From the NCBI GenBank assembly GCA_016869895.1, contig VGDC01000001.1, positions 1 to 31,845 of the forward strand: a DNA stretch of 31,845 nucleotides. Reading direction: 5' to 3'. The position numbers were made by a program, and so were the translations under genes. Under the pieces are notes generated by a model that saw only the letters and a program-made list of their open reading frames with translations, ran no database searches and was not told the origin of the DNA. This document shows positions 7,771 through 31,719 of the stretch, one piece after another; position 1 is the first letter of the stretch; each line of letters opens with the position of its first letter. The stretch is from Alphaproteobacteria bacterium. GTDB lineage: Bacteria > Pseudomonadota > Alphaproteobacteria > Rickettsiales > VGDC01.

Positions 7771-8709
7771 TTACGGTTTGACTTCCTTCAGGTACTTCAG
7801 GAACTCGTTGTCGGGCGTGAGCACCATGGTGGTGTCCTTGCCGTCCAATACCTGACGGTAAGCTTGCAGCGTGCGGTAGAAGTCATAGAACTCCTTATCG
7901 CGGCTGAAGGCCTCGGCGTAGATCTTGGTGGAGACGGCATCGGCCTCACCGCGCGTCACCTCGCCGGTCTTGCGGGCTTCGGCGATGATTTCGGCGCGTT
8001 CACGTTCCGCACGGGCGCGGATGCGCTGTGCCGCTTCCTCACCCTGCGCGCGCAATTCCTTCGCTTCGCGGGCACGGTCGGTCTGCATACGCTGATAGAT
8101 GGCTTCGCTGTTCGTCTGCGGCAGGTCGGCGCGTTTGATGCGCACGTCCACCACTTCGATGCCGAAACCGCCCAGTTTGGCGACCTGACGCGCCGCATCG
8201 GAGACGTTCTCGTCATCGGCGCGGAAGGTGCCGCTCGCCTGCTGGTTCACCTCGGCGAGAATATTCTCCATGATTTTATTACGGGTCGGCGAGAGCAGCG
8301 CGTTCAGCGGATAGCTGCCCACGACCTTTTTCAGCGACGATTCCAGAATGTCGTTCAGGCGGTCACGCATGCCGCGCTCGTTCTGCACGGTCTGATAGAA
8401 ACGCAGCGGGTCGGTGATGCGGTAACGCACGAAGGCATCGATGATGACGCGTTTCTGGTCGGATGCGTTGATCTCCTTCGATTCCGCATTGAAGTCTATC
8501 AGGCGGTTATCGAAGATGATGACGTTCTGCACGAAGGGCAGTTTGAAGTGCAATCCGGGTTCTTTCTTCACATCCACCGCACGGCCGAATTCAAGGACTA
8601 AGCCCTGTTCCACCTGCGTGACGATGAATAGCGAGTTCAGTGCAGCGAATGCACCGATGACGAGGACGGCGATAAGCCCATAACGGGTATTGCTACGTTT
8701 CGCGGCCAT
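7771..8709 (-). CDS. hflC: FtsH modulator HflC (SPFH domain)
   Basis: N-terminal TM, EPGLHFKLPF, YRITDPLRFY, GIEVVDVRIKRADLP, RMQTDR, FYDFYRTLQAY. Confidence 0.95.
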   Translation of the reverse strand: MAAKRSNTRYGLIAVLVIGAFAALNSLFIVTQVEQGLVLEFGRAVDVKKEPGLHFKLPFVQNVIIFDNRLIDFNAESKEINASDQKRVIIDAFVRYRITDPLRFYQTVQNERGMRDRLNDILESSLKKVVGSYPLNALLSPTRNKIMENILAEVNQQASGTFRADDENVSDAARQVAKLGGFGIEVVDVRIKRADLPQTNSEAIYQRMQTDRAREAKELRAQGEEAAQRIRARAERERAEIIAEARKTGEVTRGEADAVSTKIYAEAFSRDKEFYDFYRTLQAYRQVLDGKDTTMVLTPDNEFLKYLKEVKP

Positions 8710-10986: not shown

Positions 10987-11505
10987 ATGGCCAATCCGCA
11001 CCGCGGCGAGGTGACACTCACCTTCGCCGGAAGAACTTGCACCCTCCGCCCCACCTTCCATATCCTCGCTACCTTAGAGCAACGCCTCGGCCTCACCCTT
11101 TCGCAGCTGCTTTGCAGGGTCGAAGATAAGGGATTATTGGCGAGCGAAATGCTCATCATCCTTTCCCTCGCCACGCGGCATGATGGCTCTGCGCCATTCG
11201 ATTCCGATGCAGCGATGCGTCTTCCCGCCGAAGACGATTCCCTCAAAAAAGCCATGCCTTTTATCGCGCGTTTTCTCATCGGCGCGATGGGCGGTGAACC
11301 CTCCCTCGATTTTCCTCGCCTGATGCATCTGGCACAGGTGAATCTGGGTATCAATCCCGAAGAATTCTGGAAAATGAGCATTGTTGAATTATCCGCGCTC
11401 CTTGCACCCGTTTCGGCTAGGGTCGATGCTTCAAGAGGCGCAGAAATACCGCAGTCAGAGCTATATGCCCTGATGGCACAATTTCCCGATAATCATGCAG
11501 CATAA
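10987..11505 (+). CDS. GTA-type tail assembly chaperone: RcGTA g10-like N-terminus fused to g10.1/TAC-like C-terminus
   Basis: N-terminus MANPHRGEV...LRPTF..LA.LE resembles g10; C-terminus LDFPRLM...LGINPEEFWKMSIVEL...LMAQFPD resembles g10.1 chaperones. Confidence 0.8.
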   Translation: MANPHRGEVTLTFAGRTCTLRPTFHILATLEQRLGLTLSQLLCRVEDKGLLASEMLIILSLATRHDGSAPFDSDAAMRLPAEDDSLKKAMPFIARFLIGAMGGEPSLDFPRLMHLAQVNLGINPEEFWKMSIVELSALLAPVSARVDASRGAEIPQSELYALMAQFPDNHAA

Positions 11506-12002
11506 TGGGGGTAAGTATGAGTGAATTGCGATTAAGCGATGTGGTGCGCACGGAAGTCGAACAATTGGAACAATACGGCGAAGCGGCACAGGAATTTTTC
11601 ATCACTTTGTCAGGTGAAATCCGCGAAGAGTTCAGCGCGTCCTTAAACAAAATCCTCACAGGTGAATTGGCGAATTTCCAGACGCAGGCCAACCGTTCTT
11701 TGGCGACTTCGGGTTATACCACGGCAGGCAATCTGCTCGGCAATCTCGCGGGGGATTTGCTGGGAGGATTACTGCCCGATAACCTTTTCGGCGGGGTGTA
11801 TGGCGCGGCCATCAACGGCGCGGTGCGCGCGGCGGTGTCGGATTATCTGCGCACCGGATCGGTGGATATGCGCCGTGTGGTGACGGGCGCGAACAGCAGC
11901 GGCGGCAGCGTGCTTTCCCGCCAGAACAGCCTGAATCTCAGCGCAGGCCAACAATCCGCCGAAGCCGCCGCCGCGCTCCAGCGCGCACAGCGCAATCTTT
12001 AA
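11505..12002 (+). CDS. Short GTA-like tail tape-measure protein (g11-like)
   Basis: Coupled to the chaperone gene (TAATG overlap); Gly/Leu/Ala-rich middle; C-terminus SAGQQSAEAAAALQRAQRNL resembles g11 C-termini. Confidence 0.65.
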   Translation: MGVSMSELRLSDVVRTEVEQLEQYGEAAQEFFITLSGEIREEFSASLNKILTGELANFQTQANRSLATSGYTTAGNLLGNLAGDLLGGLLPDNLFGGVYGAAINGAVRAAVSDYLRTGSVDMRRVVTGANSSGGSVLSRQNSLNLSAGQQSAEAAAALQRAQRNL

Positions 12003-14065
12003 GGCAGCACCTGCACATCGCGCTTCACCGCAGGGGGCAGGGCTTCCGATTTCGGATTCACTTCTTCCTGCGGTGTTTCTGCGGGTTTGGCGGGTTCACT
12101 CACTGCTTTCGACGTGTTCTCATTGGCGGGGATGAGTGCCTTCTCGCCCTTGCGGGTCGTCTCCGCCTTCGCCTGCGCGATGAGGGCTTTGCAGTTGCTA
12201 TCCTTGCCTTGACCGGGGTCGATGAACGCGAGGATACCCGCCACCGGAGTCAACACCGCCGACAAAGCCAGCGCCGCCCCGCCGCGCGCCGCCAGAGGCA
12301 TCGCTTCCACCCCCGGACTGGGGGATTTCAGCGTGCCTTTCACCGTGATGGGCGTGCGCAGCGACACCAGCGACACGTCCTTCGGCTGCGGCACGAAACG
12401 CAGGTTCATCGCTTCCGTCTCAAGGTCTATCGTACCTTCGCCTTGGATGTTCGTGTCATCCGTATCGATGACGAGGGTTTTCGAGTTCAACACCCCGTCC
12501 TTCACATCGAAATGCCCGAGGATGCAGTTCACCGCCACGGTTCGGTCGCCGCCGCCGAGGAACACCCCGACGGACTGGAAGACGTCCAGCCCCGCCAGTT
12601 CCACCAGCAGGTGGCTGATGCGCCCACCATCCATGCCGATGCCCACCGTGCCGTTGGAGGTGGAGAGGATTTCATGCAGGCTCGCACCTTTCCCCTCCAG
12701 CTTCGCCGCCCCGCCGATGTACCCTTCCGCTTCGCCGAGGCTTCCCAACAGTTCATTCAGCGACAGGCGCGTGAAGCGGAAATCCGCCTGTGCGGCCATC
12801 GGCTGCTGGCGCGAATCCACCCGCATGGTCAAGGCCACATTGCCTTTCGCCGTCCCGAATTTCACGGGGTCGATGCGCAGGATGCGGTCATCCAGCGTCA
12901 CATGCAGGAAGAAATCATCCAGCGGCCAGCCCGGCGCGATGATGGATTTGCCGGTCAGCGTCACATCCGCATCCATCGCGGAAAGGCGGCTGACATCCAG
13001 CGGCACATCGGGGATAGCGCGCGGGCTTTGCGCCTGTTTCGCGGCTTCTGCCTTCTGTTCTGGGGTCACCGCCTCTTCCGGCGCAAGGCCGATGAGCGGG
13101 CCAAGGTCGTTGAAGTCCAGCTTCTGCGACACGAAATGCGCCGTCAGTTTCGGGCGGTCGCCGGTGGGATCCCACGTCAGATCCCCGCCGATATCGCTAT
13201 TACCCATCGTGCCTTTGAACGGGTTGAACCGCCAGATAGCATCCGCATAGTTTAGCTGTCCAGTCACCTCATAAGGGGGGGTAGGGGGCAGGGCGATACC
13301 GAAGATGGGGAAGAGGTCAGCTGCGTTGCCGCCTTTGATGGATAGGTTGATGTCCATCCCTGCGAAATTGGTGGGGTCTTGCACCGTGCCTTTGGCTTTG
13401 ATGTCCGTGTGGCCGATGTTCAGCGCGATGTCCACGGGGAAGGGCTTGTCCTCCTGCACGGTCAGCAGCGAGCCGCCGGTGGCCTTCAGCAGGAACGGGT
13501 TCTTCTGGTAATTCCCCTTGCCGCTCACATGGATGTTCTCACCCTCGGTGCGCGCTTCGATGTTGATGTCGATGTCCTGCAAGGCATCCAGATATGCCAC
13601 GCTGCTATTTTCGATATGCAACTGGCCGATGACGGGCATATCCGCCTCATCCTGATTACCGCGCTCCGGCTTCTCTTTACCCAGCGACCAGTTCGCGTCG
13701 CCATCGCCTTTGCGCTCCAGCGATACTTGGCTATCCACCAGCACGATTTTCGGGAACACCAGATCGCCGATGAGCAGCGGCAGCGGCTTCACGGAAATCT
13801 CGAACCGCCCGATATCCGCCATATTCTCCGCGCGACCGCCCTCGAAATTGGCGATGCGCAGTTCCGTCACCCGCAAGGTCGGTGGCCACGCGGGCAGGAA
13901 TCCGATGCCGCCTTTCAGCTCCACCTCGCGGTCGAGCGCGTTCGTGGCGATTTGCGAGATGTGTCGCTTGCCGCTGTCCGTGTTCGCATAGAGCAACACC
14001 CCTGCGGTGAGGACAAGCAGAAGAACGAGCAGACCGAAGAGGCCGAGGAGGATTTTTTTCAGCAT
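11999..14065 (-). CDS. AsmA-family (YhjG-like) membrane-anchored protein
   Basis: N-terminal TM, R..DG.ANW motif, G..G.SD..G.L, C-terminal DT.DT.I.G.G.IDL..E...L...P.PKD.SL.SLRTPI.V.GT. Confidence 0.88.
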   Translation of the reverse strand: MLKKILLGLFGLLVLLLVLTAGVLLYANTDSGKRHISQIATNALDREVELKGGIGFLPAWPPTLRVTELRIANFEGGRAENMADIGRFEISVKPLPLLIGDLVFPKIVLVDSQVSLERKGDGDANWSLGKEKPERGNQDEADMPVIGQLHIENSSVAYLDALQDIDINIEARTEGENIHVSGKGNYQKNPFLLKATGGSLLTVQEDKPFPVDIALNIGHTDIKAKGTVQDPTNFAGMDINLSIKGGNAADLFPIFGIALPPTPPYEVTGQLNYADAIWRFNPFKGTMGNSDIGGDLTWDPTGDRPKLTAHFVSQKLDFNDLGPLIGLAPEEAVTPEQKAEAAKQAQSPRAIPDVPLDVSRLSAMDADVTLTGKSIIAPGWPLDDFFLHVTLDDRILRIDPVKFGTAKGNVALTMRVDSRQQPMAAQADFRFTRLSLNELLGSLGEAEGYIGGAAKLEGKGASLHEILSTSNGTVGIGMDGGRISHLLVELAGLDVFQSVGVFLGGGDRTVAVNCILGHFDVKDGVLNSKTLVIDTDDTNIQGEGTIDLETEAMNLRFVPQPKDVSLVSLRTPITVKGTLKSPSPGVEAMPLAARGGAALALSAVLTPVAGILAFIDPGQGKDSNCKALIAQAKAETTRKGEKALIPANENTSKAVSEPAKPAETPQEEVNPKSEALPPAVKRDVQVLP

Positions 14066-14174: not shown

Positions 14175-14975
14175 ATGCTTTCCTATCAACACATCTATCA
14201 CGCGGGCTGCATCGCCGATGTGCAGAAGCACATGGTGCAGGTGGCGGTGCTGCGCGCGCTGCTGGCCGAGGGCGGCGATGTGACCTATATGGAGACGCAC
14301 GCAGGCCGCGGGGTCTATGACCTCTCTTCCCCCGAAGCGCGCAAGACCGGCGAAGCGCGGGACGGCATCCTGCGCCTGCTGAAAGACAGGAAACTGGCGG
14401 CTGACCATCCCTATCTTTCGCTCATTTCCAAGACCCGTGGCATCTTCGGTGAGTCGTCCTATCCCGGCTCGCCCCTGTTGGCGCGTTTCCTGCTGGCAGA
14501 CCATTTGAAACAAGGCAAAGGCGAGATGCACCTGCATGACCTCCACCCGCAGGAATTCCGCGCTTTGCAGGAGAATGTGCACGGCAAGAACATCTATTTG
14601 CGTAAAGAGAACGGCTATGTCGGCACCATGCGCCATTCACCGCCCAAACGCGGTGGCAAAGGACTGGTGCTGATAGACCCTAGCTATGAGATAAAATCCG
14701 AATATGAGGAAGCTGCCTATTTCGTGCTGGATTTGCACGAGCGCTGGCCGGAAGCGGTGATTCTGCTGTGGTATCCCATGCTCAAGAATTTCCTCTTCGA
14801 GGACTTGGCGGATTATCTAGGCGATGCGGGATTACCCGGTTATCTGCATCATGCAGTGCGATTCGCCGACCCTGAAGACGTGCGCGGGATGTTCGGCAGC
14901 GGCATGATCGCCGTGAACCTTCCCAAAGGGCTGGATGCGGAGTTGAAGCTCATTTCAGGGCTGTTGAACGTGTGA
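14175..14975 (+). CDS. rlmJ: 23S rRNA m6A2030 methyltransferase
   Basis: MLSYQHIYHAG..ADV.KH, ETHAGRG.YDL, YPGSP, LIDPSYE, LWYP. Confidence 0.93.
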   Translation: MLSYQHIYHAGCIADVQKHMVQVAVLRALLAEGGDVTYMETHAGRGVYDLSSPEARKTGEARDGILRLLKDRKLAADHPYLSLISKTRGIFGESSYPGSPLLARFLLADHLKQGKGEMHLHDLHPQEFRALQENVHGKNIYLRKENGYVGTMRHSPPKRGGKGLVLIDPSYEIKSEYEEAAYFVLDLHERWPEAVILLWYPMLKNFLFEDLADYLGDAGLPGYLHHAVRFADPEDVRGMFGSGMIAVNLPKGLDAELKLISGLLNV

Positions 14976-15788
14976 CTTAGGTGGCGCAAACATCTTTTTT
15001 AATACTGGTTCGGATATAGTGCCAACCGCAAAAGAGCCCATGTTCAAAGAAGTTATAAATTTGTTTTCCGATGCAAAAGTGAATCGATCCTGGCCCGTTC
15101 TTCCTTTGTATAATTTCTTGTCGTATTCTAACAACCAAGGCAACTCTTTATCGATTCCTTCTGTTACCGAATCATCCGTCATTTCGATGGTGATGCTGTG
15201 CAGCTTCACGCCTTCGCCGAAGAACGCGGCGAAATTATCTTCTTTTACTTGCCTCTCTCGCCAACTAATCAATGGTTTCCCCCTTTTATCTTTAATAGGT
15301 TCAACTCCATAGACGTATTTGGCGCTCGCAGGGTCATTCATATCCGCGAACGTGACAAATGTGGGGTGCAAATAGACGGGTAAATCAGCTTTAGCTTTCA
15401 AATTAGAATAGTATTTAATAGCTGGCTTCAAGCATTGTCCGCCAGGGCCATGTGGATTCTCAAAAGTGTGATATACCAGTCTTGCAGCTTCGTTTGAAGG
15501 GTCGCTGCCTCCCAGAATTGCGAAGACCTTGCCGCGTGTGCCAAGGTCAACCACTACTGCTTCGCCTTTTGTTCTAAACGAGCATCCGCCGCTTAAGCCT
15601 ACAATCAAATTGTGCTGGCTTGTATTGTCACGCGAAGTCACCTTCCGCACGGCTGAACCGGATTTGATTCCTTCAGGCGTTTCCACCTTTACTGTGAGGC
15701 GGTAGTTATAGGTATCCGAATAACCGAAACCGACGCACCCTGAAAGGAGCATGGCCGATAGGCAGAGGAGGGCGAGGCGAAGTATCAT
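14955..15788 (-). CDS. Hypothetical lipoprotein, AT-rich
   Basis: Lipobox LLSGC after a hydrophobic signal; YRLTVKVETPEG..SGSAV motif; sampled 60-nt lines have 20/60 and 24/60 G+C. Confidence 0.75.
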   Translation of the reverse strand: MILRLALLCLSAMLLSGCVGFGYSDTYNYRLTVKVETPEGIKSGSAVRKVTSRDNTSQHNLIVGLSGGCSFRTKGEAVVVDLGTRGKVFAILGGSDPSNEAARLVYHTFENPHGPGGQCLKPAIKYYSNLKAKADLPVYLHPTFVTFADMNDPASAKYVYGVEPIKDKRGKPLISWRERQVKEDNFAAFFGEGVKLHSITIEMTDDSVTEGIDKELPWLLEYDKKLYKGRTGQDRFTFASENKFITSLNMGSFAVGTISEPVLKKMFAPPKSHVQQP

Positions 15789-15911
15789 AACAATCCTTGA
15801 AGGTTGCAAAGGCGGGCGGATTGCACTTACCCTAGCATGATGCGTAGCCTATGACAAATAGCCTCTTTATGCCTGCTCGTCATAGGCTTGCAGGATAACA
15901 AAGGTATTCCC

Positions 15912-16841
15912 ATGACTTTGAAGATTCTCGCGGCATCCGCAGGACAAGCCGTTAAAGACCGCTATACACAGACCGTGCACCGCCATCCCCGCGCCACGCG
16001 GCATCCCCGCGCGCTGGCCTTCACCCTGCGTGACCTCTTCATGACGGATTTGTTGATTTACGGTGGCTATGCGGCCTATACCATCATCCTCGCTCTGTTT
16101 CCCTTCATCATCTTTCTCCTCGCGCTGGCAAGTGTGGTCGGCACGCCGCAGCTGGCCAATGAGGTGATCGATTATGGCTTCGAGATTTTCCCCGAAGAGC
16201 TGGTGGGCATCCTCGCTCCCGTCGTGCGGGAAATCATGGCGAATAACGACACAGGCGTGATGACCGTCGCCGTCTTCGGTATCCTCTGGATTGCTTCATC
16301 GGGCGTGGAGGGCATGCGCTTCGGGTTGAACGTGATGTATGAGGCCACCGAATGCCGCCCGTTCTGGAAGCGCCGCTTGCAGAGCCTCGGTTTCGTGGTG
16401 CTTTCGGCGCTTGCGTTCCTGCTGTTGGCGACGCTGCTCATCATCTGGCCGGTGGCGGCGAAATGGCTGGGCGATTCGCTGCCCTTCCTCCATTCCTCCG
16501 CGCTGAACGTGTTGCGCTATCTGCTCGCCTTCGGGCTGCTCACATGGGGGCTGTCGATTCTGTATCGTTATCTCCCCTTCGGTCGCCGCCATATGAAAGA
16601 GGTCTGGCAGGGCGCGATAGCCGCCGCCATATTGTGGCTCATCATCGTCAGTCTCTTCGCGCTGTATCTCGTGAATTTCGAGGAATATACCCTGCGTTAC
16701 GGCAGCTTCGCGGGCGGCATCCTCACGCTGGTTTTCCTGCAGTTCACGGCTTCTGCCGTGCTCTTCGGCGGGCGGTACAATTTCCTCCTGAAGAAGATAC
16801 GCGAGGGCGACGCGGCGCGTAAGCCACTAAAATCGCTTTGA
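15912..16841 (+). CDS. YihY/virulence factor BrkB family membrane protein (start uncertain)
   Basis: AAYTIILALFPFIIFLL, LWIASSG...LN.MY, RPFWKRR, LYRYLP, Y...YGSFAG. Confidence 0.88.
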   Translation: MTLKILAASAGQAVKDRYTQTVHRHPRATRHPRALAFTLRDLFMTDLLIYGGYAAYTIILALFPFIIFLLALASVVGTPQLANEVIDYGFEIFPEELVGILAPVVREIMANNDTGVMTVAVFGILWIASSGVEGMRFGLNVMYEATECRPFWKRRLQSLGFVVLSALAFLLLATLLIIWPVAAKWLGDSLPFLHSSALNVLRYLLAFGLLTWGLSILYRYLPFGRRHMKEVWQGAIAAAILWLIIVSLFALYLVNFEEYTLRYGSFAGGILTLVFLQFTASAVLFGGRYNFLLKKIREGDAARKPLKSL

Positions 16842-21727: not shown

Positions 21728-21756
21728 TTGCCCCCGCAACCCTCGGGGGGTATAAG
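21728..21756 (+). promoter_or_regulatory. Sigma70-type promoter for wzm-wzt, overlapped by an inverted repeat
   Basis: TTGCCC-N17-TATAAG ending 29 nt before the wzm ATG; IR AGGGTTGC-CCCC-GCAACCCT at 21724-21743. Confidence 0.55.
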
Positions 21757-21784
21757 GGATTTTCCTGAAAACCACGGACATCCC

Positions 21785-22588
21785 ATGCCCGATAAGCTGC
21801 TTTTCATCACCCGATTCCTCGATACGCGCCGCTCGCACCTGTTGCAGCTGATGCTGTTCAAGGCCTATGCCGACCTGAAGACCGAATCGGCGCGCAGCAC
21901 GGCAGGCGTGCTGTGGTGGGTGCTGGAACCGGTGCTGCATATGGCGGTGTATTATCTCGTCTTCGCGGTGCTGATGCAGACGAAGACCGATCAGTTCGTG
22001 GTGTTCCTGCTCATCGGGCTGGTGGTCTGGCGGTGGTTCTTCTCGACGGTGACGCAGGGCGCGGCGTCCATCATAGCGGGCAAGAACCTGATGCAGCATG
22101 TGCATATCACGCCGTCTTTCTTCCCCTCGGTGTCGCTGATAAGCCAAGGATTCAAGTTCGTCATCACCTTCCTTATCCTGCTGGTGTTCATCTGGCTATA
22201 CGGCCTTGCGCCGAGCGTTGCTTACACTGCTCTTCCGGTCGTGCTGGCGGTGCAGTTTCTGTTCATCGTGGGCACGACCTATCTGTGCTCAGCCATCGTG
22301 CCTTTTCTGCCCGACCTGAAAATTCTGTTGGGGCATTTCCTGCGCGCGGTGATGTTCGTCAGCGGTATCTTCTTCGACGGCGACCATATCCCCGAACACC
22401 TGAAGAGCTGGTTCTTCGCCAACCCGATGGCGGCGCTCATTGAAGCGTACCGCGATATCCTCATCGACGGTGTGCTGCCCGACTGGGGGCATCTGAGCTA
22501 TGTCGCGTTGTTCGGTTTATTGCTGTTATTGGTGGGCAAGCGGCTGCTGGCAAAAGCGGAATTCCTGTACCCCAGAGTGGTGATGTGA
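21785..22588 (+). CDS. wzm: Polysaccharide ABC transporter permease (Wzm/KpsM-like)
   Basis: G.LWWVLEP, FLLIGLVVWRWF, F.SGIFF, NPMA.LIEAYR.IL; about 6 TM segments. Confidence 0.92.
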   Translation: MPDKLLFITRFLDTRRSHLLQLMLFKAYADLKTESARSTAGVLWWVLEPVLHMAVYYLVFAVLMQTKTDQFVVFLLIGLVVWRWFFSTVTQGAASIIAGKNLMQHVHITPSFFPSVSLISQGFKFVITFLILLVFIWLYGLAPSVAYTALPVVLAVQFLFIVGTTYLCSAIVPFLPDLKILLGHFLRAVMFVSGIFFDGDHIPEHLKSWFFANPMAALIEAYRDILIDGVLPDWGHLSYVALFGLLLLLVGKRLLAKAEFLYPRVVM

Positions 22589-22595
22589 GGGCAAA

Positions 22596-23336
22596 ATGAA
22601 CGCAAAAACCACCCAAAAAACCGAAAAACCCATCCTCTCCCTCAAGGGCGTGGGCGTGAACTATGGCAAATCCTTCTCCTTCCGCCGCAAGCGGCTTGAC
22701 CGCTGGGTGCTGCAGGACATCAGCTTCGACCTGATGCCCGGGGAATCGCTTGGCGTGTTGGGGCGCAACGGCATCGGCAAAAGCACGCTGCTGAAGACCA
22801 TGGCAGGTGTCATCGCACCGGATGCGGGCGAGGTGAAGCTGAAGAAAGGATGCAGCGCATCGCTGCTTGCCTTGGGCACGGGCTTCATGCCGGAATTGAC
22901 GGGGCGAGAGAACGTGTTCCTCGGTGGGATGCTCATCGGCATGAAAGCAGGGGAAATCCGCAAGCGTTTCGATGAGATTGTGGCCTTTGCGGAGCTGGAA
23001 GAGGCCATCGATATGCCCTATTACACCTATTCCAGCGGCATGAAATCGCGCCTCGGATTCGCGCTGAGCATCCAGCGCAATCCCGATATCCTGCTGCTCG
23101 ACGAAGTGCTGGGCGTGGGCGATGTGGCTTTCCGCAAGAAATCCGCCGATGCGTTGAAAGAGCGCATCCTCGGCGAACAGACGGTGGTGCTGGTGTCGCA
23201 CAACGGGCAGACCATCCGCGAACTGTGCAACCGCGCCATCTGGATAGAACAGGGTGTCATCCGCATGGCGGGCGACCCCGACCAAGTGGTGACGGAATAT
23301 GAGGCGCAGATGCTGGCACTGGAACAAAGCAAATAA
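22596..23336 (+). CDS. wzt: Polysaccharide ABC transporter ATPase (Wzt/KpsT-like, no C-terminal carbohydrate-binding domain)
   Basis: GRNGIGKST, ELTGRENV, YSSGMKSRLGF, LLLDEVLGVGD.AF, VSH. Confidence 0.94.
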   Translation: MNAKTTQKTEKPILSLKGVGVNYGKSFSFRRKRLDRWVLQDISFDLMPGESLGVLGRNGIGKSTLLKTMAGVIAPDAGEVKLKKGCSASLLALGTGFMPELTGRENVFLGGMLIGMKAGEIRKRFDEIVAFAELEEAIDMPYYTYSSGMKSRLGFALSIQRNPDILLLDEVLGVGDVAFRKKSADALKERILGEQTVVLVSHNGQTIRELCNRAIWIEQGVIRMAGDPDQVVTEYEAQMLALEQSK

Positions 23337-23375
23337 ACCGATTATGTTCGGATAAGAACAATAAAGAGAGGCCGC

Positions 23376-23735
23376 ATGAGGCAGTATAAGGTCGGAGAAG
23401 AGGACGCGCGCCCTTGGGGTGGGTGGAAGGTGCTGGATGTGCATCCGGATTATGTGGTGAAGCATATCCATGTGCTGCCGGGAAAACGCCTTTCCCTGCA
23501 GCGTCACCGCTATCGCGAGGAGGTCTGGGCCATCACCCGCGGTATCGCCCAAGTGACGCTGGACGAAGAGACGCTGACCCTGAAAGTCGGAGAGAGCATC
23601 CGCATTCCGCTGCGCGCGTGGCACCGCATCCACAACATCGGCGAGGAGATGCTGGAGTTCGTGGAGACGCAGACGGGAAGCCGATTCGATGAAGATGACA
23701 TCGAACGGAAAGAGGACGATTTCGGGCGCGCCTGA
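23376..23735 (+). CDS. Stand-alone cupin, type II phosphomannose isomerase C-terminal-like
   Basis: RPWG, SLQRH..REE.W, HRI.N.G, QTG..FDEDDIER..DDFGR. Confidence 0.85.
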   Translation: MRQYKVGEEDARPWGGWKVLDVHPDYVVKHIHVLPGKRLSLQRHRYREEVWAITRGIAQVTLDEETLTLKVGESIRIPLRAWHRIHNIGEEMLEFVETQTGSRFDEDDIERKEDDFGRA

Positions 23736-23832
23736 TTTCCTGCGCAGGAATTTGGCATGACAAGAAGGCCGTTCTGCGCTAGAAAGGCGGCTTATCAATC
23801 TGCGCATATAAACAAAAAATAAGGAAATTGTC

Positions 23833-24717
23833 GTGGTACAGGTCATCGCGGAAGTCGGCTGCAATCATAAAGGCGATATGGACATTGCCAAGGAACTCAT
23901 CAACGTCGCCGCCCATGTGTGCAAGGCTGATGTGGTGAAATTCCAGAAACGTCACAACAAGGAATTGCTGTCGCCGGAGCAGTATAACGCGCCGCATCCG
24001 AACCCTGCTAATTCCTACGGCGATACTTACGGCGCGCACCGCGAATTCCTCGAATTCTCCACCGAGCAGCACGCCGAATTGAAAGCCCATTGCGAAGCGA
24101 ACGGCATCATCTACTCCACCTCCGTGTGGGATTTGACCTCCGCCAAGGAAATCGCGTCGCTCGACCCCGTGCTCATCAAAATCCCTTCCGCCACGAACCT
24201 CCACTGGCCGCTTCAGGGCTGGCTCTGCGAGAACTATAAGGGCGAAATCCACGTCTCCACCGGCATGACCACCAAGGACGAAATCGAAGAGATCGTGAAG
24301 TTCTACGAGAAGCATGGCCGCGCGAAGGATTCGCTGGTGCTTTATGCCTGCACGTCCGGCTATCCGGTCGCTTTCGACGACCTCTGCCTGAACGAGGTCA
24401 GCCGCATCAAGGAACTGTACGGCGACCGCGTGAAAGCCATCGCTTTCTCCGGCCACCACCTCGGCATCGCTGCTGACATCGCTGCTATGACGCTGGGCGC
24501 AAGCTGGGTGGAGCGTCACTTCACGCTCGACCGCACCTGGAAAGGCACCGACCACGCCGCCAGCCTCGAGCCGGATGGACTCCGCCGTCTCTGCCGCGAC
24601 CTGCGCAATGTGGAGAAAGCGCTCACCTTCAAATCCCGCGATATTCTGGAAGTGGAAGCCGTGCAGCGCCGCAAGCTGAAATGGGGCGAATACACCGCAG
24701 AAACCAAAGCGGGCTGA
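23833..24717 (+). CDS. neuB: NeuB-family nonulosonate synthase lacking the C-terminal antifreeze-like domain
   Basis: IAEVGCNHKGD, DVVKFQKR, KIPSA, STGMTT, CTSGYP, SGHHLG, VERHFTLDR..KGTDH.ASLEP; 294 aa. Confidence 0.92.
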   Translation: MVQVIAEVGCNHKGDMDIAKELINVAAHVCKADVVKFQKRHNKELLSPEQYNAPHPNPANSYGDTYGAHREFLEFSTEQHAELKAHCEANGIIYSTSVWDLTSAKEIASLDPVLIKIPSATNLHWPLQGWLCENYKGEIHVSTGMTTKDEIEEIVKFYEKHGRAKDSLVLYACTSGYPVAFDDLCLNEVSRIKELYGDRVKAIAFSGHHLGIAADIAAMTLGASWVERHFTLDRTWKGTDHAASLEPDGLRRLCRDLRNVEKALTFKSRDILEVEAVQRRKLKWGEYTAETKAG

Positions 24718-24720
24718 TTC

Positions 24721-25860
24721 ATGCGCGTCGTCGCCGTCATCCCCGCGCGCGGAGGCTCGAAAGGCGTTCCGAACAAGAACATCCGCCCTGTCGGCGGCGT
24801 GCCGCTGGTCGGCCGCAGCATCATCGCCGCGCTGGAAAGCGAGACGGTGGGCGGCGTTTACGTCTCCACGGATGATGTCGGCATCGCGGCGGTGTCCACC
24901 GCCTTCGGCGCAAGCGTCATCCAGCGTCCGGCGGAAATATCGGGGGATACGGCCTCTTCCGAAGCCGCACTGCTCCACGCACTTGACCACATGCCCGAAC
25001 AGCCGGACGTGCTGGTGTTCCTGCAATGCACCTCGCCTTTCACCACGCCTGCGCAGATAGACGCCGTGGTGCGCAAGCTCATTGCGACGGATGCCGACTG
25101 CTGCTTCGCGGCGGCGGAGGATCATGGCTTCCTGTGGCAGGAGAACGGCGAGGATGCGGTGGGCGTGAACCACGACCACACCCAGCCGCGCAAACGCCGG
25201 CAGGAACTCACCCCGACCTACCGCGAGACGGGCAGCATCTATGCCCTGCGCGTGACGGCTTTCCGCGAGAAACAGCAACGCTTCTGCGGCAAGACGGTGC
25301 TGGCGGTGGTGGATCAGGCGCCGTTGGAAATCGATACGCCCGATGAACTGCGCTGGTGCGATGCCATCGCCTGGACGCGGAAAGAGAACGTGCCGCTGAA
25401 ACCGCGATTGGAGGCCATCAAAGCCCTCGTCTTCGATTTCGACGGGGTGATGACCGACGACCATGTGACCGTGAGCGAAACGGGCGAGGAGAGCGTGCGC
25501 TGCTCGCGCTCGGACGGGATGGGCATCACGCTGCTGAAGGAGAAGGGGCTGAAGCTGTTCATCCTCTCCAAAGAGAAGAACCCCGTGGTGCTGGCGCGCG
25601 CGAAGAAGCTGGGCATTCCCGCGCAGAATTCCACCGATAGCAAACTGCCCGCGCTGCAGGCATGGGCAGCGGAGAACGGCGTGAGCCTTTCCGAAATCGC
25701 CTATATGGGCAATGATGTGAACGATGTGGAAGTGATGGGGCAGGTAGGGCTCGCCATCGCCCCCGCCGATGCCCACCCCTCGGCCAAAGCCGTTGCCCAT
25801 TACATCACCGCGAAGGATGGCGGCAAGGGCGCCGTGCGGGAAGTATGTGATTGGTGGTGA
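24721..25860 (+). CDS. neuA: CMP-nonulosonate synthetase fused to a KdsC/YrbI-type HAD phosphatase
   Basis: IPARGGSKGVPNKN, VSTDD, LQCTSPF, ETGSIY, EIDTPD; then FDFDGVMTD, SDGMGI, YMGNDVND, GG.GAVRE. Confidence 0.92.
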   Translation: MRVVAVIPARGGSKGVPNKNIRPVGGVPLVGRSIIAALESETVGGVYVSTDDVGIAAVSTAFGASVIQRPAEISGDTASSEAALLHALDHMPEQPDVLVFLQCTSPFTTPAQIDAVVRKLIATDADCCFAAAEDHGFLWQENGEDAVGVNHDHTQPRKRRQELTPTYRETGSIYALRVTAFREKQQRFCGKTVLAVVDQAPLEIDTPDELRWCDAIAWTRKENVPLKPRLEAIKALVFDFDGVMTDDHVTVSETGEESVRCSRSDGMGITLLKEKGLKLFILSKEKNPVVLARAKKLGIPAQNSTDSKLPALQAWAAENGVSLSEIAYMGNDVNDVEVMGQVGLAIAPADAHPSAKAVAHYITAKDGGKGAVREVCDWW

Positions 25861-25927
25861 GAATTCACCCCTTCCGGGTTTGCTGTTATCGCCTCAAGAT
25901 GGATGAAACATTCATGATGAGGTCGTT

Positions 25928-26773
25928 ATGCACTCAATCCATCCATCGGATTATCAAAAAGCCTTCGTGCGTTATCTGCGCAAAGGAATTCCCCTTGATG
26001 TCGCATTAAAGGCGCCATCAAGCGAACACACTACAACTCACTACATCTGGCGCACGTCTGGTGATGATAAGGTTAGGAATGCCCACGCGGTCAACAACGG
26101 CAAACTATTTCGTTGGGATGTGCGTCCATCCACCGGACATCCGGGCGAGGATTATAATTGTCGTTGCAAAGCGGAGCCGTTCATTCCAGGTGAGAGTGAG
26201 TATGCATATCAAATACTATTGCAGCCAGAGCGTGATGTGGAAAATAAATGGACAGCAGCCAAATTCATTAGACATTACTACTTTGGTGGCGGAAGAACAC
26301 TTGAGTTACAAGAAACGGGGCATCTCCTAGCGATTATCAATTACTATTTATACTATATAAAACGTCAGGGAGCGGACAGTAGAAGCCGGGTGAATTCTGA
26401 AATAATTACTGCTGCTCGTAAGCGACAGAGTGGGGGTTTCACCCATAATTTTTATAATTCATACACCGAGTTTGGTGATTATTTTTGGCCGTTTGGTGGT
26501 GGAAAGGTAAGCGGCTTATTCACAGGAGACGTTCATCATAAAAACGGCATGCTAAGTATCCAAGGAACTATTAATTACAAGTATGCAGATATTTTCACAG
26601 ATCCGGTTAATTTGAGAGAAGATTTTTACCATGGCACATCAGACCCAGCCGAAGCATCTATATTGGCTCTAATGGTAACTGATGCGCTTGGTGTGCACTT
26701 TGATGTAGTCGGGCGGTGGGAGACGCAATTCTCAGCGGAAGTAAGATTAGATGCTGAAAATAGCATGTACTAA
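25928..26773 (+). CDS. MuF (phage head morphogenesis) domain protein with a C-terminal extension; candidate polymorphic toxin
   Basis: YIWRTSGDDKVR..H..NNGK.F.W......HPGEDYNCRC.AEP MuF signature; GAGGT RBS; sampled lines have 23/60 and 24/60 G+C. Confidence 0.82.
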   Translation: MHSIHPSDYQKAFVRYLRKGIPLDVALKAPSSEHTTTHYIWRTSGDDKVRNAHAVNNGKLFRWDVRPSTGHPGEDYNCRCKAEPFIPGESEYAYQILLQPERDVENKWTAAKFIRHYYFGGGRTLELQETGHLLAIINYYLYYIKRQGADSRSRVNSEIITAARKRQSGGFTHNFYNSYTEFGDYFWPFGGGKVSGLFTGDVHHKNGMLSIQGTINYKYADIFTDPVNLREDFYHGTSDPAEASILALMVTDALGVHFDVVGRWETQFSAEVRLDAENSMY

Positions 26774-27243
26774 GAAGCTAGTTCTAAAATCAGTGTGCTG
26801 ACCATCATGCAAATGGGGTAAATGACGAATATGAGTGTGCCGATAGCTATCAGAAAGTTCGCGAACCATCCCTTCTTGAAGTGCCCACCCATGGTTTTGA
26901 TGGTGCGTCTGTGCCGCATTTGCCAAGCAAATTCACACAATCCCGCATATCCCGCTGCGAAGACCCAGCCAATCAGCGGGTAGAAGAATAAGCCTAAGCC
27001 TTTCGGCGGCTTTCCGCATTCGGGATGTTGCTGGAGAGAGCCGTCAGCGAATTGGCTTTGGCAAATTTCATAATCGTGCCAACCTAGATGATAGTGTGAG
27101 TAAATCATCGCATTCAGCGCCGCATACCCTAAAAGAATCGCGCCGATGAGCCGCCACGTGCGGAACTTCGCACTATCTTCTGGCTTTGCGGCGAAGACCA
27201 GCACGGGAATCAGCATCACGAATAACCAGAAAAACGGGTTCAT
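26770..27243 (-). CDS. 157-aa four-TM membrane protein; candidate immunity protein
   Basis: Start MNPFFW, coupled by ATGA overlap to the upstream GT29 gene; four hydrophobic segments; Cys pair in the loop between TM2 and TM3; stop overlaps the MuF gene stop. Confidence 0.72.
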   Translation of the reverse strand: MNPFFWLFVMLIPVLVFAAKPEDSAKFRTWRLIGAILLGYAALNAMIYSHYHLGWHDYEICQSQFADGSLQQHPECGKPPKGLGLFFYPLIGWVFAAGYAGLCEFAWQMRHRRTIKTMGGHFKKGWFANFLIAIGTLIFVIYPICMMVSTLILELAS

Positions 27244-28301
27244 TCCCCTGCTTCCCCCATCAGCTTCCTGAAGTAAGCCGCTTCTTTGTGCCAATCGTGG
27301 GGGCTGCTGATGGTGAATTTCTCGAAATAGTGTGATTTCGCGCCGGCTTGCAGATGGTCGGTGAAGCTGAAACCGTAGCAATCGGGTTTCGCATCCGGCC
27401 CGATGATGTCACACACAGCACGGATGGCGAGCAGCCCTGTGCTGGGCGGTGAGCCAAGCTCTTCAAACAAGGCGTCATAGGTCTTCTGGAAGGTCAATGT
27501 GCCCGTGCCTTTGCGCTGCTGCGCTTCGATGGCCGACCAATCGGCGGGATGGGCGAAAAGGTGGGAGACGCCATAGCCAATGAAGGCGAATCTTTCATCT
27601 GGTCGCTCCTGTGTGCGGCGGTTGCGCCCACGGAACCAGACGGTGGCTTTCGTGCCGTAATCCGCTGCGAAACGCGAATCGGCGGCGAAATTGTTGAAGC
27701 GGATGACGACGGCGTGGCGGTCTATCTCCGCGCCTCTGGCCTTGCCGACTTCGCAGGGGGAATTGCCGACCAGCGCGATATTGAAGCGGTTAGCGAGGAG
27801 GTATTCGCGGAAGCGGTCGTGATCCAGCGCGAAGCGGATGCGCTGGCGGTTGGTGGGGTCGAAACAGGCATATCTGCCTTCGATGTCTTTCGCGCCGGGG
27901 AAGGTGATGGCGGCGGCATCGCGCAGGCCGAGGTCATAGAGCGCGGCTTTCAGGCGAAGGCGTTTGGCGGGCGCGCGCACGTTGCCCATGCGGGGTAGAT
28001 AGGATGCGGCGGTGGGGGCATCCAGTCGGCCAGAATCGAAGAGGTCGAGCAGGTAATCCGCCAGATAATCCCCGTTATGGGGGGCGAGTTCAGCCGCCTT
28101 CAGGAAGAGCGGCGCGGCGGCGAGGGAATGCCCGCCCGCATAACGATGCGCCTTGGCGGATGTGTGGAAATCCGCCGCAGAACGAGGCGGGAAACGGCGA
28201 TAACCCGCCCGCACAAGGCCAAGAACCACAGAAAGCGCACGGTTGCACTCTAACCGGCTCTGGATGCGCGCTATCTGATATAATCCCTGAAGCAAAATCA
28301 T
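27240..28301 (-). CDS. GT29-family (eukaryote-type) sialyltransferase-like protein (start 28301 or 28316)
   Basis: Sialylmotif L-like [28 protein letters not shown]...DYGTKAT; S-like PSTGLLAI...CYGFSF; III/VS-like HYFE...HDWHKE. Confidence 0.85.
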
Positions 28302-28426
28302 GGCTCTGGATAACACGGATTGTCAGCTTTTTCCACGGAAAATGCTTTGGATTCCTTGACGTTGCAGGAATTATGCTTATGATGCTGCCATTGCCTGCGG
28401 TGGGCGGTTATTTCAAGGTTTTTTGT

Positions 28427-29761
28427 ATGCGTATCGGTATTTTCGGGACGGGTTATGTCGGCCTCGTGCAGGCGGCTGTGCTGGCGGAAACGGGCTATAG
28501 CGTGCTGTGCGTCGATGTGGATGCGTCGAAAGTGGCGCGACTGGAAGCAGGCGAAATCCCCATCTATGAACCCGGTCTAGAAGGGCTGGTGAAGCATAAC
28601 CGTGCGGAAGGCCGCTTGAAATTCACCACGCAGGCCGCCGATGCGGTGAAGCATGCGGGCATCCAATACATCGCCGTGGGCACGCCGCCCGATGAGGATG
28701 GCTCCGCCGATTTGAAATATGTGTTGGCTGTGGCGGAGAGCATCGCCATCCATATGGAATCCCACCAGATCGTCATCAACAAATCCACTGTACCCGTCGG
28801 AACAGGGGACAAGGTGCGCGCGAAAATCGCCGAGACGCTGAAAGAACGTGGCCGCGAAGACCTGACCTTCGATGTGGTGTCCAACCCCGAATTCCTCAAG
28901 GAAGGCTCGGCGGTGGGCGATTGCATGAAGCCCGACCGGATCGTCATCGGCACGAACAGCCGCGAGACGGAAGCGGTGATGCGCGAGCTTTATGCCCCCT
29001 TCAACCGCAACCATGAGAAAATCATCGTGATGGATGTGCGCAGTGCGGAAATGACCAAATACGCCGCGAACTGCATGCTGGCGACCCGCATCACCTTCAT
29101 GAACGAGATGGCCAACCTCGCCGAGAAGCTGGGGGCGGATATCGAACAGGTGCGCCATGGCATCGGGTCTGACCCGCGTATCGGCTATCACTTCATCTAC
29201 CCCGGCATCGGCTATGGCGGCTCGTGTTTCCCCAAGGACGTGCGCGCGCTCATCCAGACGGCGAAGGCGGTGGGCTATGAAACCACGCTGCTGAACGCGG
29301 TGGAGAACCGCAATAACACGCAGAAAACTGTACTCTTCAACAAGCTGAACGCCTATTTCGGTGGCGACCTCAAAGGCAAGGTCATCGCACTTTGGGGGCT
29401 GGCGTTCAAGCCGAATACCGATGATATGCGCGAAGCACCGTCGCGCGTGTTGATGGAAGCGCTGTGGGAAGCGGGCGCAAGCGTGCGCGCTTTTGACCCC
29501 GAAGCCATGCAGGAAGCCGAGCGGGTGTATGGCAAAAGCGACCGATTGACGCTGGTGGAGAACAAGGAAGCCGCGCTGGAGGGCGCGGATGCGCTGGCCA
29601 TCGTGACCGAGTGGAAAGCCTTCCACGCGCCGGATTTTGCGCGCATCAAAAACACGCTGCGTGAGCCTGCCATCTTTGACGGACGCAATATCTATGACCC
29701 CGCCGTCGTCGCGCGCCACGGCATCGACTATTATGCTATCGGGCGCGGAAAGACCATTTAA
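28427..29761 (+). CDS. ugd: UDP-glucose 6-dehydrogenase (444 aa)
   Basis: True start [12 protein letters not shown]; [57 protein letters not shown]. Confidence 0.96.
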
Positions 29762-29781
29762 CCCCTAAAAATTCGAAATAG

Positions 29782-31719
29782 ATGAAAAAAGAACAAGAAA
29801 AATACTGTTTCACCACCGTTGTTTCTGACAATTTCGTCCACGGATTCATCGTGATGCTGTGCTCGCTGCGGGAGAAGAACCCGTGGATGAATGCGCCGTT
29901 CTACGTGTTCCACCATGAGCGCGAATGCCCGCTTTCCGAAGCCAGCATGACGGAGATGCGGAAGTATTACGACAACATCATCTTCCACCGCGTGGACATC
30001 GAGAAGTTCGAGCGCATCCTGCATGCGCGCGACAATGTCATCAAGACACCGGAGCGCCTCGCTTCCGCCTTTTTCATCATGGAAGCCTTCACTTTCAGCG
30101 ATTACGACCGCGTCATCTGCATCGACAGTGACATGCTGGTGCTGGGGGATATTTCCGAGCTAGTGCGCGTGAAAGCCGACCTCGCGGTGGTGCATGAATA
30201 CGATAGCCGCACCTATCAGCAGAAGAAGCATTTCAACAGCGGCATCGTGGTCATCGGCAAGAAATATCTGCATGCGGATAGTTTGAAGGACATCAGCGAT
30301 TCGCTGGACCGTTTCGACCTGAAAGCTAAGCACGGCAAGGCTGATCAGGCGGTGCTGAACTGCTATTTCGCCGATAAGGAGCTCACCTTCCTACCCCATG
30401 CCTTCAACTGCCTGAAACGGCTTTATGGCGATTCCTATGCCAAGCCCTACAACGATTTGCACACAGGCAGCCGGAAAATCGCTGCGAAACTGCAGAAGGA
30501 TGGCATCCGCATCCTGCATTATGTGGGCGAGAAGCCATGGAACCTGAAGCGTAAGCCGGTCGAGATGCGCTATTACTGCGCAGAGGAGCTGTGGCACGAT
30601 GCCTTCCGCAAATATGCTTCGCCGGAGGCGCAGCACCGCTACCTGACCGATTTCCGCCGTCATGCGGATGAGCAGGTGGCGCAGTTGACCAAACGCATCG
30701 AGAAATACCGTGCCTTCTGGCCGTATCGTCTGCAGAAGACGCTGGAGAACCTGAGCGACAGCAAGTCCATCGGTGAACTTGGCGAAAAGCTGGTGAAATT
30801 GGCTGTGCATGTGGCGAAACGCCTGCGCGTGAAGGTCATCCACGCATGGATGCGCTATCGCCAGCTGGACGAGAAATCGCTGGAGAAGCGTCAACGCGAA
30901 CAGCGGATGGATGTGCAGCGCAGGGCGTTCCTCGATTCCGGTGAATACGACCGTCTGCGCGCCCGATTTGAGAACAAATACGAAGGCCAGCGGTGCTTCA
31001 TCATCGGCAATGGCCCGTCGCTGAACCAGCAGGACTTGTCGGTGTTGAGGGATGAGCAGGTCTTCTGCACCAACTGGTTCATGAACCATCCGCAATACCA
31101 CGACATCAATCCGCAGTTCTATGCCCTCTGCTCCCACCAGATTTTCGGTGGCTGGTCGCACGAGCATATCCAGCTGGAGAAGGGCATGGAGACCGCGCTG
31201 GCCACACATACGCGTGATTCTGTCAAGTTCTTCTCCCACGTGTTCAAGTCGCATCTGGAGAGCCAGACGGCACTGGCCGACCACGAGCTGTATTATCTGA
31301 TGTTCGACAAGCCGAAGAACTTCATCCATAAAATCGACGACATGAATCTCGACCTCAGCCGCAACATGGACGATGGGCACACGGGGGTCATCACCTTCTG
31401 CATCCCGCTGGCCATCTTCATGGGGTTCAAGGAAATCTACCTGCTCGGCTGCGATTGTGATTATGGCATCGACGACGGCAAGACGGATGTGCAGTATTTC
31501 TACGAGAAAGAGAAACACACCACCCAGCTCACCGATATGGACAGCCTGCGCCGGACATGGTCATACCCCGACGGAGCGGCATTCAAGGCTTATGCAGTGG
31601 CAAAGCGCAAGGCCGACGAAGCGGGTGTGCGCATCGTGAATCTCACGGCAGGCGGCAGGCTGGAGGTCTTTCCGCGGGAATCCTTAGAGGACGTGGTGAA
31701 ACAGCCGGAAGCCGCTTAG
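29782..31719 (+). CDS. Bifunctional glycosyltransferase: GT8 domain plus DUF115/Maf-like (CstII-related) domain
   Basis: N-half IDSDML, FNSGIVVI, DQAVLN, LP.AFN, HYVGEKPW; C-half RCFIIGNGPSL, FCTN, LAIFMGFKEIYLLGCD. Confidence 0.85.
   Translation: MKKEQEKYCFTTVVSDNFVHGFIVMLCSLREKNPWMNAPFYVFHHERECPLSEASMTEMRKYYDNIIFHRVDIEKFERILHARDNVIKTPERLASAFFIMEAFTFSDYDRVICIDSDMLVLGDISELVRVKADLAVVHEYDSRTYQQKKHFNSGIVVIGKKYLHADSLKDISDSLDRFDLKAKHGKADQAVLNCYFADKELTFLPHAFNCLKRLYGDSYAKPYNDLHTGSRKIAAKLQKDGIRILHYVGEKPWNLKRKPVEMRYYCAEELWHDAFRKYASPEAQHRYLTDFRRHADEQVAQLTKRIEKYRAFWPYRLQKTLENLSDSKSIGELGEKLVKLAVHVAKRLRVKVIHAWMRYRQLDEKSLEKRQREQRMDVQRRAFLDSGEYDRLRARFENKYEGQRCFIIGNGPSLNQQDLSVLRDEQVFCTNWFMNHPQYHDINPQFYALCSHQIFGGWSHEHIQLEKGMETALATHTRDSVKFFSHVFKSHLESQTALADHELYYLMFDKPKNFIHKIDDMNLDLSRNMDDGHTGVITFCIPLAIFMGFKEIYLLGCDCDYGIDDGKTDVQYFYEKEKHTTQLTDMDSLRRTWSYPDGAAFKAYAVAKRKADEAGVRIVNLTAGGRLEVFPRESLEDVVKQPEAA

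Follow-up and report, generated by a model that had tools for sequence, protein, structure and literature searches.

How a gene for the core of a phage head protein comes to stand among housekeeping and capsule genes, and what its product does there, is the question raised by a 281-codon gene on contig VGDC01000001.1 of an alphaproteobacterial assembly. The whole stretch analyzed, referred to here as the window, is 31,845 nucleotides long. An initial annotation, made from the letters alone, had read the gene as an orphan minimal MuF protein with a colicin M (ColM)-like C-terminal domain, that is, a lipid II-targeting or ColM-fold toxin on a prophage-independent MuF chassis. The gene and its parts are as follows.

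25928..26773, + strand: MuF-core/ColM-fold toxin gene (P0001), 281 aa, ATG start and TAA stop
26024..26173, + strand: minimal MuF core, aa 33 to 82, match to Pfam PF04233
26228..26770, + strand: predicted ColM-fold C-terminal domain, aa ∼101 to 281 (∼190 aa), from structure comparison
26273..26293, + strand: H116-Y-Y-F-G120-G-G122 motif, paired by hhalign with H135-Y-L-W-G139-N-G141 of ColM
26588..26617, + strand: candidate catalytic signature D221-I-F223-T-D225-P-V-N-L-R230 (D-x-[FY]-T-x5-R), from conservation

The open reading frame (ORF) is intact and is preceded by a ribosome-binding site (GAGG, 6 nt 5′ of the ATG). Its residues 33 to 82 match the Phage_Mu_F model (PF04233) above the gathering cutoff, with an E value of 5.4e-11. 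The initial annotation had placed a short MuF core at aa 35 to 85, and the word was well chosen, since the match spans only profile positions 61 to 111 of 112, i.e., the C-terminal half of the domain. TIGR01641 (SPP1 gp7) scored slightly below its cutoff, and phage minor capsid proteins in BFVD matched the toxin over the MuF-core part. Across the family, residues D46, V49, R50, H53, G58, P72, C78, R79, and C80 of the core are invariant in the alignment. Elsewhere in the assembly (2.09 Mb, ∼90% complete), no other gene matches the MuF domain, so that a count across it yields a single MuF protein and no paralogues.

The ∼190-residue region that follows the core contains the two motif strings quoted in the initial annotation, RHYYFGGGRTLELQETGHL at aa 115 to 133 and FGGGKVSGLFTGDVHHKNGMLSIQGTINYKYADIFTD at aa 189 to 225. 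The ColM strings given there for comparison are real as well: ColM of plasmid pAPEC-O1-ColBM, the source of our ColM sequence, has AHYLWGNGAERSVNIANIGL and GAYLGNITLKTEGTLTISANGSWTYNGVVRSYDDKYDFN. The region is not named by Pfam, NCBIfam, or PHROGs, and Pfam has no model for it in any of 118 family members. In particular, Colicin_M (PF14859) gave no match at an E value of ≤1 for the toxin, and hence none above its gathering score, nor did it match any of the 118 members; DUF3289 (PF11692) and DUF6402 likewise had no Pfam match in these sequences. A phmmer search of the PDB sequences returned nothing matching the toxin. The toxin does match phrog_31798, a family of unknown function, over aa 103 to 228. 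In a profile search of 400 genomes of the phylum, PF14859 was absent.

The likeness to ColM appears at the level of the fold. AlphaFold2 modeled the whole toxin with a pLDDT of 91.7 and aa 88 to 281 alone with a pLDDT of 93.7, and each of the two models was compared exhaustively with 48,161 representative PDB chains using VIA-align. For both models, ranks 1 to 5 were taken by pectocin M1 (8jc1), syringacin M (4fzl), PaeM (4g76), BtpeA-CTD (9jdi), and ColM (3da4). These matches aligned 130 to 144 residues (model residues ∼104 to 275, about 72% of the domain) with Z values of 5.2 to 7.0 and an rmsd of 4 to 5 Å, a range in which, as the tool warns, a match can stem from a shared arrangement only. 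Taken singly, the Z values are thus unremarkable; the persuasive point is that five ColM-fold entries twice fill the first five ranks. As independent support, structure matching in the ESM Atlas gave a TM score of 0.60 for a cluster with DUF3289 in 11% of its members and of 0.50/0.54 for a Colicin_M cluster, and an RHS-toxin cluster was matched as well. A language-model feature search matched ColM and DUF3289 clusters at 0.93, together with a DUF6402 cluster, and the AFDB cluster matches for the toxin include DUF3289 proteins and one eCIS-cargo protein. At the profile level, hhalign aligned the C-domain with a 27-member ColM alignment over 123 columns (ColM 133 to 258; E value of 3.1e-4, probability of 39%), while its alignments using the full-length alignment or a single ColM were weak (probability of 3.6 to 8.8%). 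Foldseek found no ColM-like match in the PDB at an E value of <0.1 with either the full or the C-domain model. The ColM fold proposed in the initial annotation is supported by VIA-align, by the structure and feature matches in the Atlas, and weakly by hhalign, with Foldseek against it; membership in Pfam Colicin_M at the level of sequence is not supported. We conclude that the C-domain, as modeled, belongs to the structural superfamily of ColM and DUF3289 as a distant relative that lies outside Pfam Colicin_M.

Both motifs of the domain are conserved. The H-x3-G-x-G motif is kept in most family sequences (H116 in 99 of 107, G120 in 89, and G122 in 101), and so is the second signature (D221 in 107 of 107, F/Y223 in 106, D225 in 104, and R230 in 84). 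G200 and D221 are the invariant columns of the C-domain in the family alignment; D221, the sole invariant acidic residue there, is followed by [FY]223, T224, D225, and P226. ColM activity requires DXYDX5HR, and a burkhocin carries the degenerate form DXFKX5R, whose spacing is identical to that of D221-x-[FY]-T-x5-R230 in our family (PMC5821083). The second Asp and the His of the ColM motif are missing, in agreement with the earlier remark that D-x-Y-D is only partly matched. Because hhalign favors a different register, which places D228 and E231 of the family onto D226 and D229 of ColM, we infer a candidate catalytic role of D221, F223, and R230 from their conservation and spacing. Three residues of the window copy differ from those usual in the family: K112, where 83% have Asp; E158, where 94% have Gln; and N228, where 51% have Asp.

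A word-indexed search retrieved at least 315 homologues of the toxin, nearly all of them 250 to 330 aa long and alignable end to end at 35 to 57% identity. A hidden Markov model (HMM) of the C-domain alone, searched against 1.84 billion representatives at an E value of ≤1e-3, found 576 proteins (representatives at 50% identity). When ten longer C-domain relatives were scanned with Pfam, eight contained a MuF domain, with profile coverage reaching positions 21 to 111; of the remaining two, one had no Pfam match and the other was an unrelated repetitive protein. Given these eight of ten, the C-domain appears, as far as HMMER reaches, to occur almost exclusively after a MuF core. At the 80 best loci, every genome that has a name is alphaproteobacterial, with carriers in Phyllobacterium, Rhodobacterales, Hyphomicrobiales, and metagenome-assembled genomes labeled Rickettsiales; cultured carriers include Phyllobacterium brassicacearum STM 196, Cereibacter ovatus JA234, Rhodobium orientis DSM 11290, Tropicimonas isoalkanivorans DSM 19548, and Thiosulfatihalobacter marinus GL-11-2. 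Of 400 genomes sampled evenly across the class, 5 carry the family, which is therefore sporadic and accessory.

Two relatives depart from the common layout. In one (P0300), a peptidoglycan-binding domain (PG_binding_1) precedes the MuF core and the ColM-like domain, which would fit action in the envelope. In another genome (G687, which carries locus L005), a stand-alone fragment on contig C48 (positions 8018 to 8299, − strand) matches C-domain positions 95 to 188 only; it lies ∼0.8 kb downstream of a full toxin gene and could be the tip of a toxin, displaced or left as an orphan.

At the window locus, the toxin gene and its neighbors are arranged as follows.

24721..25860, + strand: cytidylyltransferase (NeuA/PseF-like)-KdsC-like phosphatase fusion, host capsule gene, from NCBIfam
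25861..27243, no strand: low-G+C two-gene island (toxin gene and convergent immunity gene), from G+C and GC3
26770..27243, − strand: candidate immunity gene, 157 aa, four predicted transmembrane (TM) helices, homologues convergent with the toxin gene
27240..28316, − strand: GT29-family sialyltransferase-like protein, host capsule gene, Pfam PF00777 (E value of 3.7e-10)

The contig carries housekeeping genes (ilvI-like, miaA, a DegP-like protease, a Band-7/SPFH protein of the HflK/C-like type, AsmA, and topoisomerase IB) and capsule genes (KpsM/KpsT-like ABC export, recognized from translations, NeuB, the NeuA-KdsC fusion, GT29, and Ugd); Pfam assigned the 10 ORFs upstream of the toxin gene to housekeeping families, and the downstream genes are capsule genes. 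GT29 sialyltransferases form a family mostly known from eukaryotes. The two-gene island has a G+C content of 44 to 50%, compared with 60 to 64% in its flanks, and GC3 values of 0.40 and 0.60, compared with 0.71 to 0.81. The toxin gene itself measures 44.1% G+C (41.3% in the C-domain part; GC3 of 0.40), so that the figure of about 40% given in the initial annotation was slightly low but the contrast with the flanks that it pointed to is there. Since this base composition is foreign, we read the cassette as horizontally acquired. The partner gene fits tightly into its place: its stop overlaps that of the toxin gene, and its start codon overlaps the GT29 stop codon (ATGA, 27240 to 27243), so translation of the imported partner seems to be coupled to that of a host capsule gene. 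Pfam and annotation revealed no gene for a portal, capsid, terminase, tail, or integrase in the 31.8-kb contig, and tblastn with phage and GTA queries gave no match in the window. This bears out the earlier observation that no portal or capsid gene lies nearby, and the toxin gene here does not sit beside a portal gene in a prophage head module.

Positions 21728 to 31719 of the window make up a sialic-acid-type capsule locus in this ∼2-Mb alphaproteobacterium, which also includes a cupin gene and the gene for a 645-aa protein that has, in its N-terminal part, a weak match to a lipopolysaccharide galactosyltransferase model. A second low-G+C patch (48%, compared with ∼60%) lies at 14500 to 16000 and contains an ORF without a Pfam match (14955 to 15809, − strand, 284 aa).

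Could the gene simply be what is left of a minor head gene of a prophage, in decay and without present function? Half a MuF domain, the lack of a phage nearby, the foreign base composition, and the substitution of several conserved positions are what such a remnant might show. Decay would, however, have had to spare the ORF, the ribosome-binding site, and the partner gene, all of which are intact, and the same architecture recurs in hundreds of proteins that have diverged to 35 to 57% identity around invariant residues, which argues for a family in its own right and not a truncation. We therefore regard a functionless remnant as very improbable.

Clustering the neighboring ORFs at the 80 best loci revealed four families of partner genes directly after the toxin gene, and 64 of the 80 loci have such a small adjacent gene. 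The convergent 4-TM family accounts for 22 loci, the window among them, and its window member has a two-Cys loop that is predicted to face the periplasm. The other three families (27, 14, and 5 loci) are encoded on the same strand as the toxin and combine a single TM helix at the N terminus with a soluble domain that contains Cys. None of the four is matched by Pfam. The 4-TM type accompanies toxins that are mostly ≥41% identical to that of the window, and the 27- and 14-locus types accompany toxins that are mostly ≤39% identical to it. Because the type of partner tracks the subtype of toxin, and because arrays of partner genes occur, the toxin and its partner follow, on the sequence evidence, the pattern of a toxin/immunity pair. 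All partner types are located in the envelope, which leads us to argue that the toxin would act from the periplasmic side, like ColM, PaeM, and DUF3289 proteins. ColM-type toxins are countered by anchored periplasmic Cmi or four-TM-helix PmiA proteins (PMC5821083); DUF3289 is reported to be a ColM-like, periplasm-acting type VI secretion system (T6SS) effector, for which toxicity in the periplasm, rounding of cells, and small immunity proteins in the membrane are documented (PMC11148199, PMC12135965). A complex prediction for the C-domain and the 4-TM protein gave scores of 0.38, 0.00, and 0.00 and was counted neither for nor against the pairing.

Diverged 4-TM genes stand in tandem behind one toxin gene at two loci, three at L018 (9436 to 9888, 10253 to 10732, and 10950 to 11459, − strand) and two at L005 (8809 to 9336 and 9879 to 10382, − strand), resembling the orphan-immunity arrays of polymorphic toxin loci. 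The single-TM families (L036:8878-9399, L025:8783-9316, and L045:8819-9304) show an L-P-N-G-like motif immediately behind the TM helix and, given this shared start of their soluble parts, could be remotely homologous, with a single immunity fold.

The position within a capsule locus, the coupling of the partner to a sialyltransferase gene, and the degenerate catalytic signature could also be taken to mean that the ColM-like fold has another role here, either acting on another polyprenyl-phosphate-linked intermediate (of capsule or O-antigen) or serving the virion, without being toxic, by helping DNA to cross the envelope. It is relevant in this regard that the gene transfer agent of Rhodobacter capsulatus (RcGTA) binds capsule and that its recognition genes adjoin capsule/exopolysaccharide genes (PMC5026251). 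On the other hand, the window is the only one among the 80 loci with a capsule context, and the covariation of toxin and partner, together with the tandem partner genes, is typical of a toxin/immunity conflict and not of a virion enzyme with a housekeeping role. We consider such a role improbable.

The description of the gene as prophage independent applies to the window locus but not to the family, whose members lie repeatedly inside structural modules of prophages and gene transfer agents (GTAs). At six loci, the cassette is inserted between GTA g15 (GTA_TIM plus Rcc01698_C) and a DUF2793 gene, which is followed by a cell-wall hydrolase gene; DUF2793 is the RcGTA tail-fiber family (PMC5026251, PMC10883770). 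At a further locus (L082), it lies between the GTA-type g7 (head completion) and g8 (tail completion)/g9 (tail tube) genes. At ten loci, it occupies the head-tail junction of a lambda-like prophage, away from the portal gene, as in L035, where the order is terminase, capsid, gpW-like, DUF6441, toxin, immunity, tube, tape measure, and DUF2460. Eight loci have the cassette directly after an integrase gene, with the terminase 4 to 5 kb away, and five have it between recN and ligA, as in Phyllobacterium.

The genome of the window has its own GTA genes, distributed over three contigs: C65 (portal to g8), C91 (g12 to g13), and C74 (g13 to g15). On C74, the DUF2793 gene follows g15 immediately and without an insert, and the insertion site used in six other genomes is therefore empty in this one; the cassette is unlinked to the GTA genes. 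The sole portal of the assembly is of the HK97 type and lies on C65, and neither an SPP1-type portal nor a T6SS sheath gene (TssC) was detected in this genome. GTA g15 was found in 46 of 55 carrier genomes, compared with 33 of the 400 genomes of the class sample, and in 4 of the 5 carriers within that sample, a cooccurrence that is only suggestive because the contrast is inflated by shared ancestry. Upstream of the toxin gene, neither the window nor any of 79 related loci has a CtrA box (TTAA-N7-TTAA).

The explanation that best accounts for all of these data is an imported toxin-immunity cassette with ColM-like action in the periplasm and delivery by a phage-like particle, and we consider this reading, taken as a whole, reasonably probable. 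The toxin would join the C-terminal core of MuF/gp7 (aa 33 to 85) to a domain of the colicin M/DUF3289 fold (aa ∼100 to 281). By analogy with ColM, this domain would most likely work at the inner membrane on its periplasmic face, where it would cleave the undecaprenyl-pyrophosphate link in lipid II or in a similar lipid-linked precursor and thereby block cell-wall synthesis, and the convergent four-helix membrane protein would protect the carrier from incoming toxin. The vehicle would most likely be a phage-like particle, which in this genome would be the resident RcGTA-type GTA; the MuF core may place a few copies of the toxin in the capsid, to exit with the DNA into the periplasm of the recipient. 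The data show the architecture, the likeness of fold, the conserved gene pairing with its covariation, the foreign base composition, and the orphan position; substrate, catalytic residues, and route of delivery are what we infer beyond these. DNA carried by RcGTA is delivered to the periplasm and is then taken up by competence proteins, so a particle-borne ColM-like toxin would land just where it could act. ComEC, ComF, and DprA are noted as required for RcGTA uptake (PMC10883770), and MuF/gp7 proteins are internal to the capsid and leave it with the DNA (PMC5512222). Half a MuF domain, the lack of a CtrA box, and a cassette unlinked to the GTA genes in this genome are points against delivery by particles. 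Nor are RcGTA and lambda/HK97-type heads known to use MuF proteins.

A ColM-fold periplasmic toxin could also reach its target without being carried by a particle, released by lysis (GTA or prophage) or by another export route and entering cells as bacteriocins do, in which case the MuF-derived N terminus would be a receptor-binding or translocation module. The classical ColM-family proteins are indeed released bacteriocins with N-terminal uptake domains (PMC5821083), the window locus is an orphan, many relatives stand among housekeeping genes, and only half of a MuF domain is left. However, an N terminus of 85 residues is very small for crossing the outer membrane and has no TonB-box-like or receptor domain, the part of MuF that it retains is the most conserved part of a virion protein, and the repeated insertions are within particle structural modules and not beside lysis genes. 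Bacteriocin-like entry, with the N-terminal role that it entails, therefore seems unlikely to us.

Returning to delivery by particles, the more specific proposal that RcGTA-type GTAs and related alphaproteobacterial siphophages package a MuF-core/ColM-like toxin and release it with their DNA into the recipient's periplasm is one that we put forward tentatively and hold to be possible rather than probable. If it is true, exchange by GTAs would be policed, in that only cells with the matching membrane immunity gene would survive receipt, and orphan cassettes such as that of the window would arm the resident GTA in trans. GTAs would then be weapons or kin-discrimination devices besides DNA couriers, which bears on the long-standing question of why they are maintained.

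Neither MuF toxins (PMC3482391, PMC5576092) nor ColM-family polymorphic toxins (PMC5821083) nor DUF3289 effectors (PMC11148199) are new in themselves. With the polymorphic MuF toxins that temperate phages carry (Zhang et al. 2012, PMC3482391; Jamet et al. 2017, PMC5576092), the family shares an N-terminal MuF/gp7 module, a C-terminal toxin that varies, a small immunity gene next to it, and the idea of a capsid-borne toxin ejected together with the DNA. Those toxins have been described as encoded exclusively in temperate phages and prophages (PMC5576092). Unlike them, the window toxin has MuF N terminal to the toxin domain in partial form only (the C-terminal ∼50 residues of the profile), its gene stands away from a portal gene and outside a prophage, and its C-domain is of the predicted ColM fold and presumably periplasmic, with immunity proteins in the membrane or periplasm. 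The term "lipid II" is absent from the survey of MuF toxins, and "colicin" occurs once, in the background (PMC5576092).

The Colicin M family (ColM, PaeM, syringacin M, and pectocins; PF14859) provides the best structural match over the whole catalytic domain, and it shares the H-x3-G-x-G motif and TM-anchored or four-TM-helix immunity; the candidate D-x-aromatic-x...R signature of our family resembles that of the burkhocin variant. Different from that family are the absence of N-terminal TonB-box and receptor-binding domains (hhalign aligns only ColM 133 to 258), in whose place stands a MuF core, the alphaproteobacterial distribution, and the lack of sequence membership at the Pfam level. The review of the ColM family mentions neither MuF nor Alphaproteobacteria (PMC5821083). 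The DUF3289 T6SS effectors (PMC11148199, PMC12135965) and BtpeA-CTD of Bacteroides fragilis (9jdi) share the use of a ColM-like domain as exchangeable cargo. In our family, the carrier is a phage-head module and not a T6SS spike or adaptor, and the likeness lies at the level of the fold, below the reach of HMMER, with neither a PF11692 match nor T6SS linkage. The RcGTA-type GTAs (PMC5026251, PMC10883770) contain relatives of the cassette within their clusters, and the window genome has such a GTA but carries its cassette elsewhere.

We found no publication describing a MuF-core/ColM-like toxin pair, and nothing relevant in the literature on GTAs with MuF or with polymorphic toxins. The family, which would be a distant branch of the ColM/DUF3289 superfamily with a degenerate catalytic signature, links the phage-borne MuF toxins with ColM-type enzymes, known as released bacteriocins and as T6SS cargo. 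It would represent a toxin of the type that attacks cell-wall precursors, by analogy, mounted on a phage-head chassis, paired with membrane immunity, and spread through the Alphaproteobacteria both as orphan chromosomal cassettes and within the structural modules of GTAs and prophages.

At one of the related loci, a GTA cluster is closed by another toxin-like cassette. In L017, a 208-aa protein (11264 to 11887, + strand) with a CdiA-CT RNase A-type toxin domain (PF18431, E value of 7e-12) is encoded just after the GTA tail-fiber and cell-wall-hydrolase genes and is followed by a 101-aa ORF (11887 to 12189); a homologue is present in L016.
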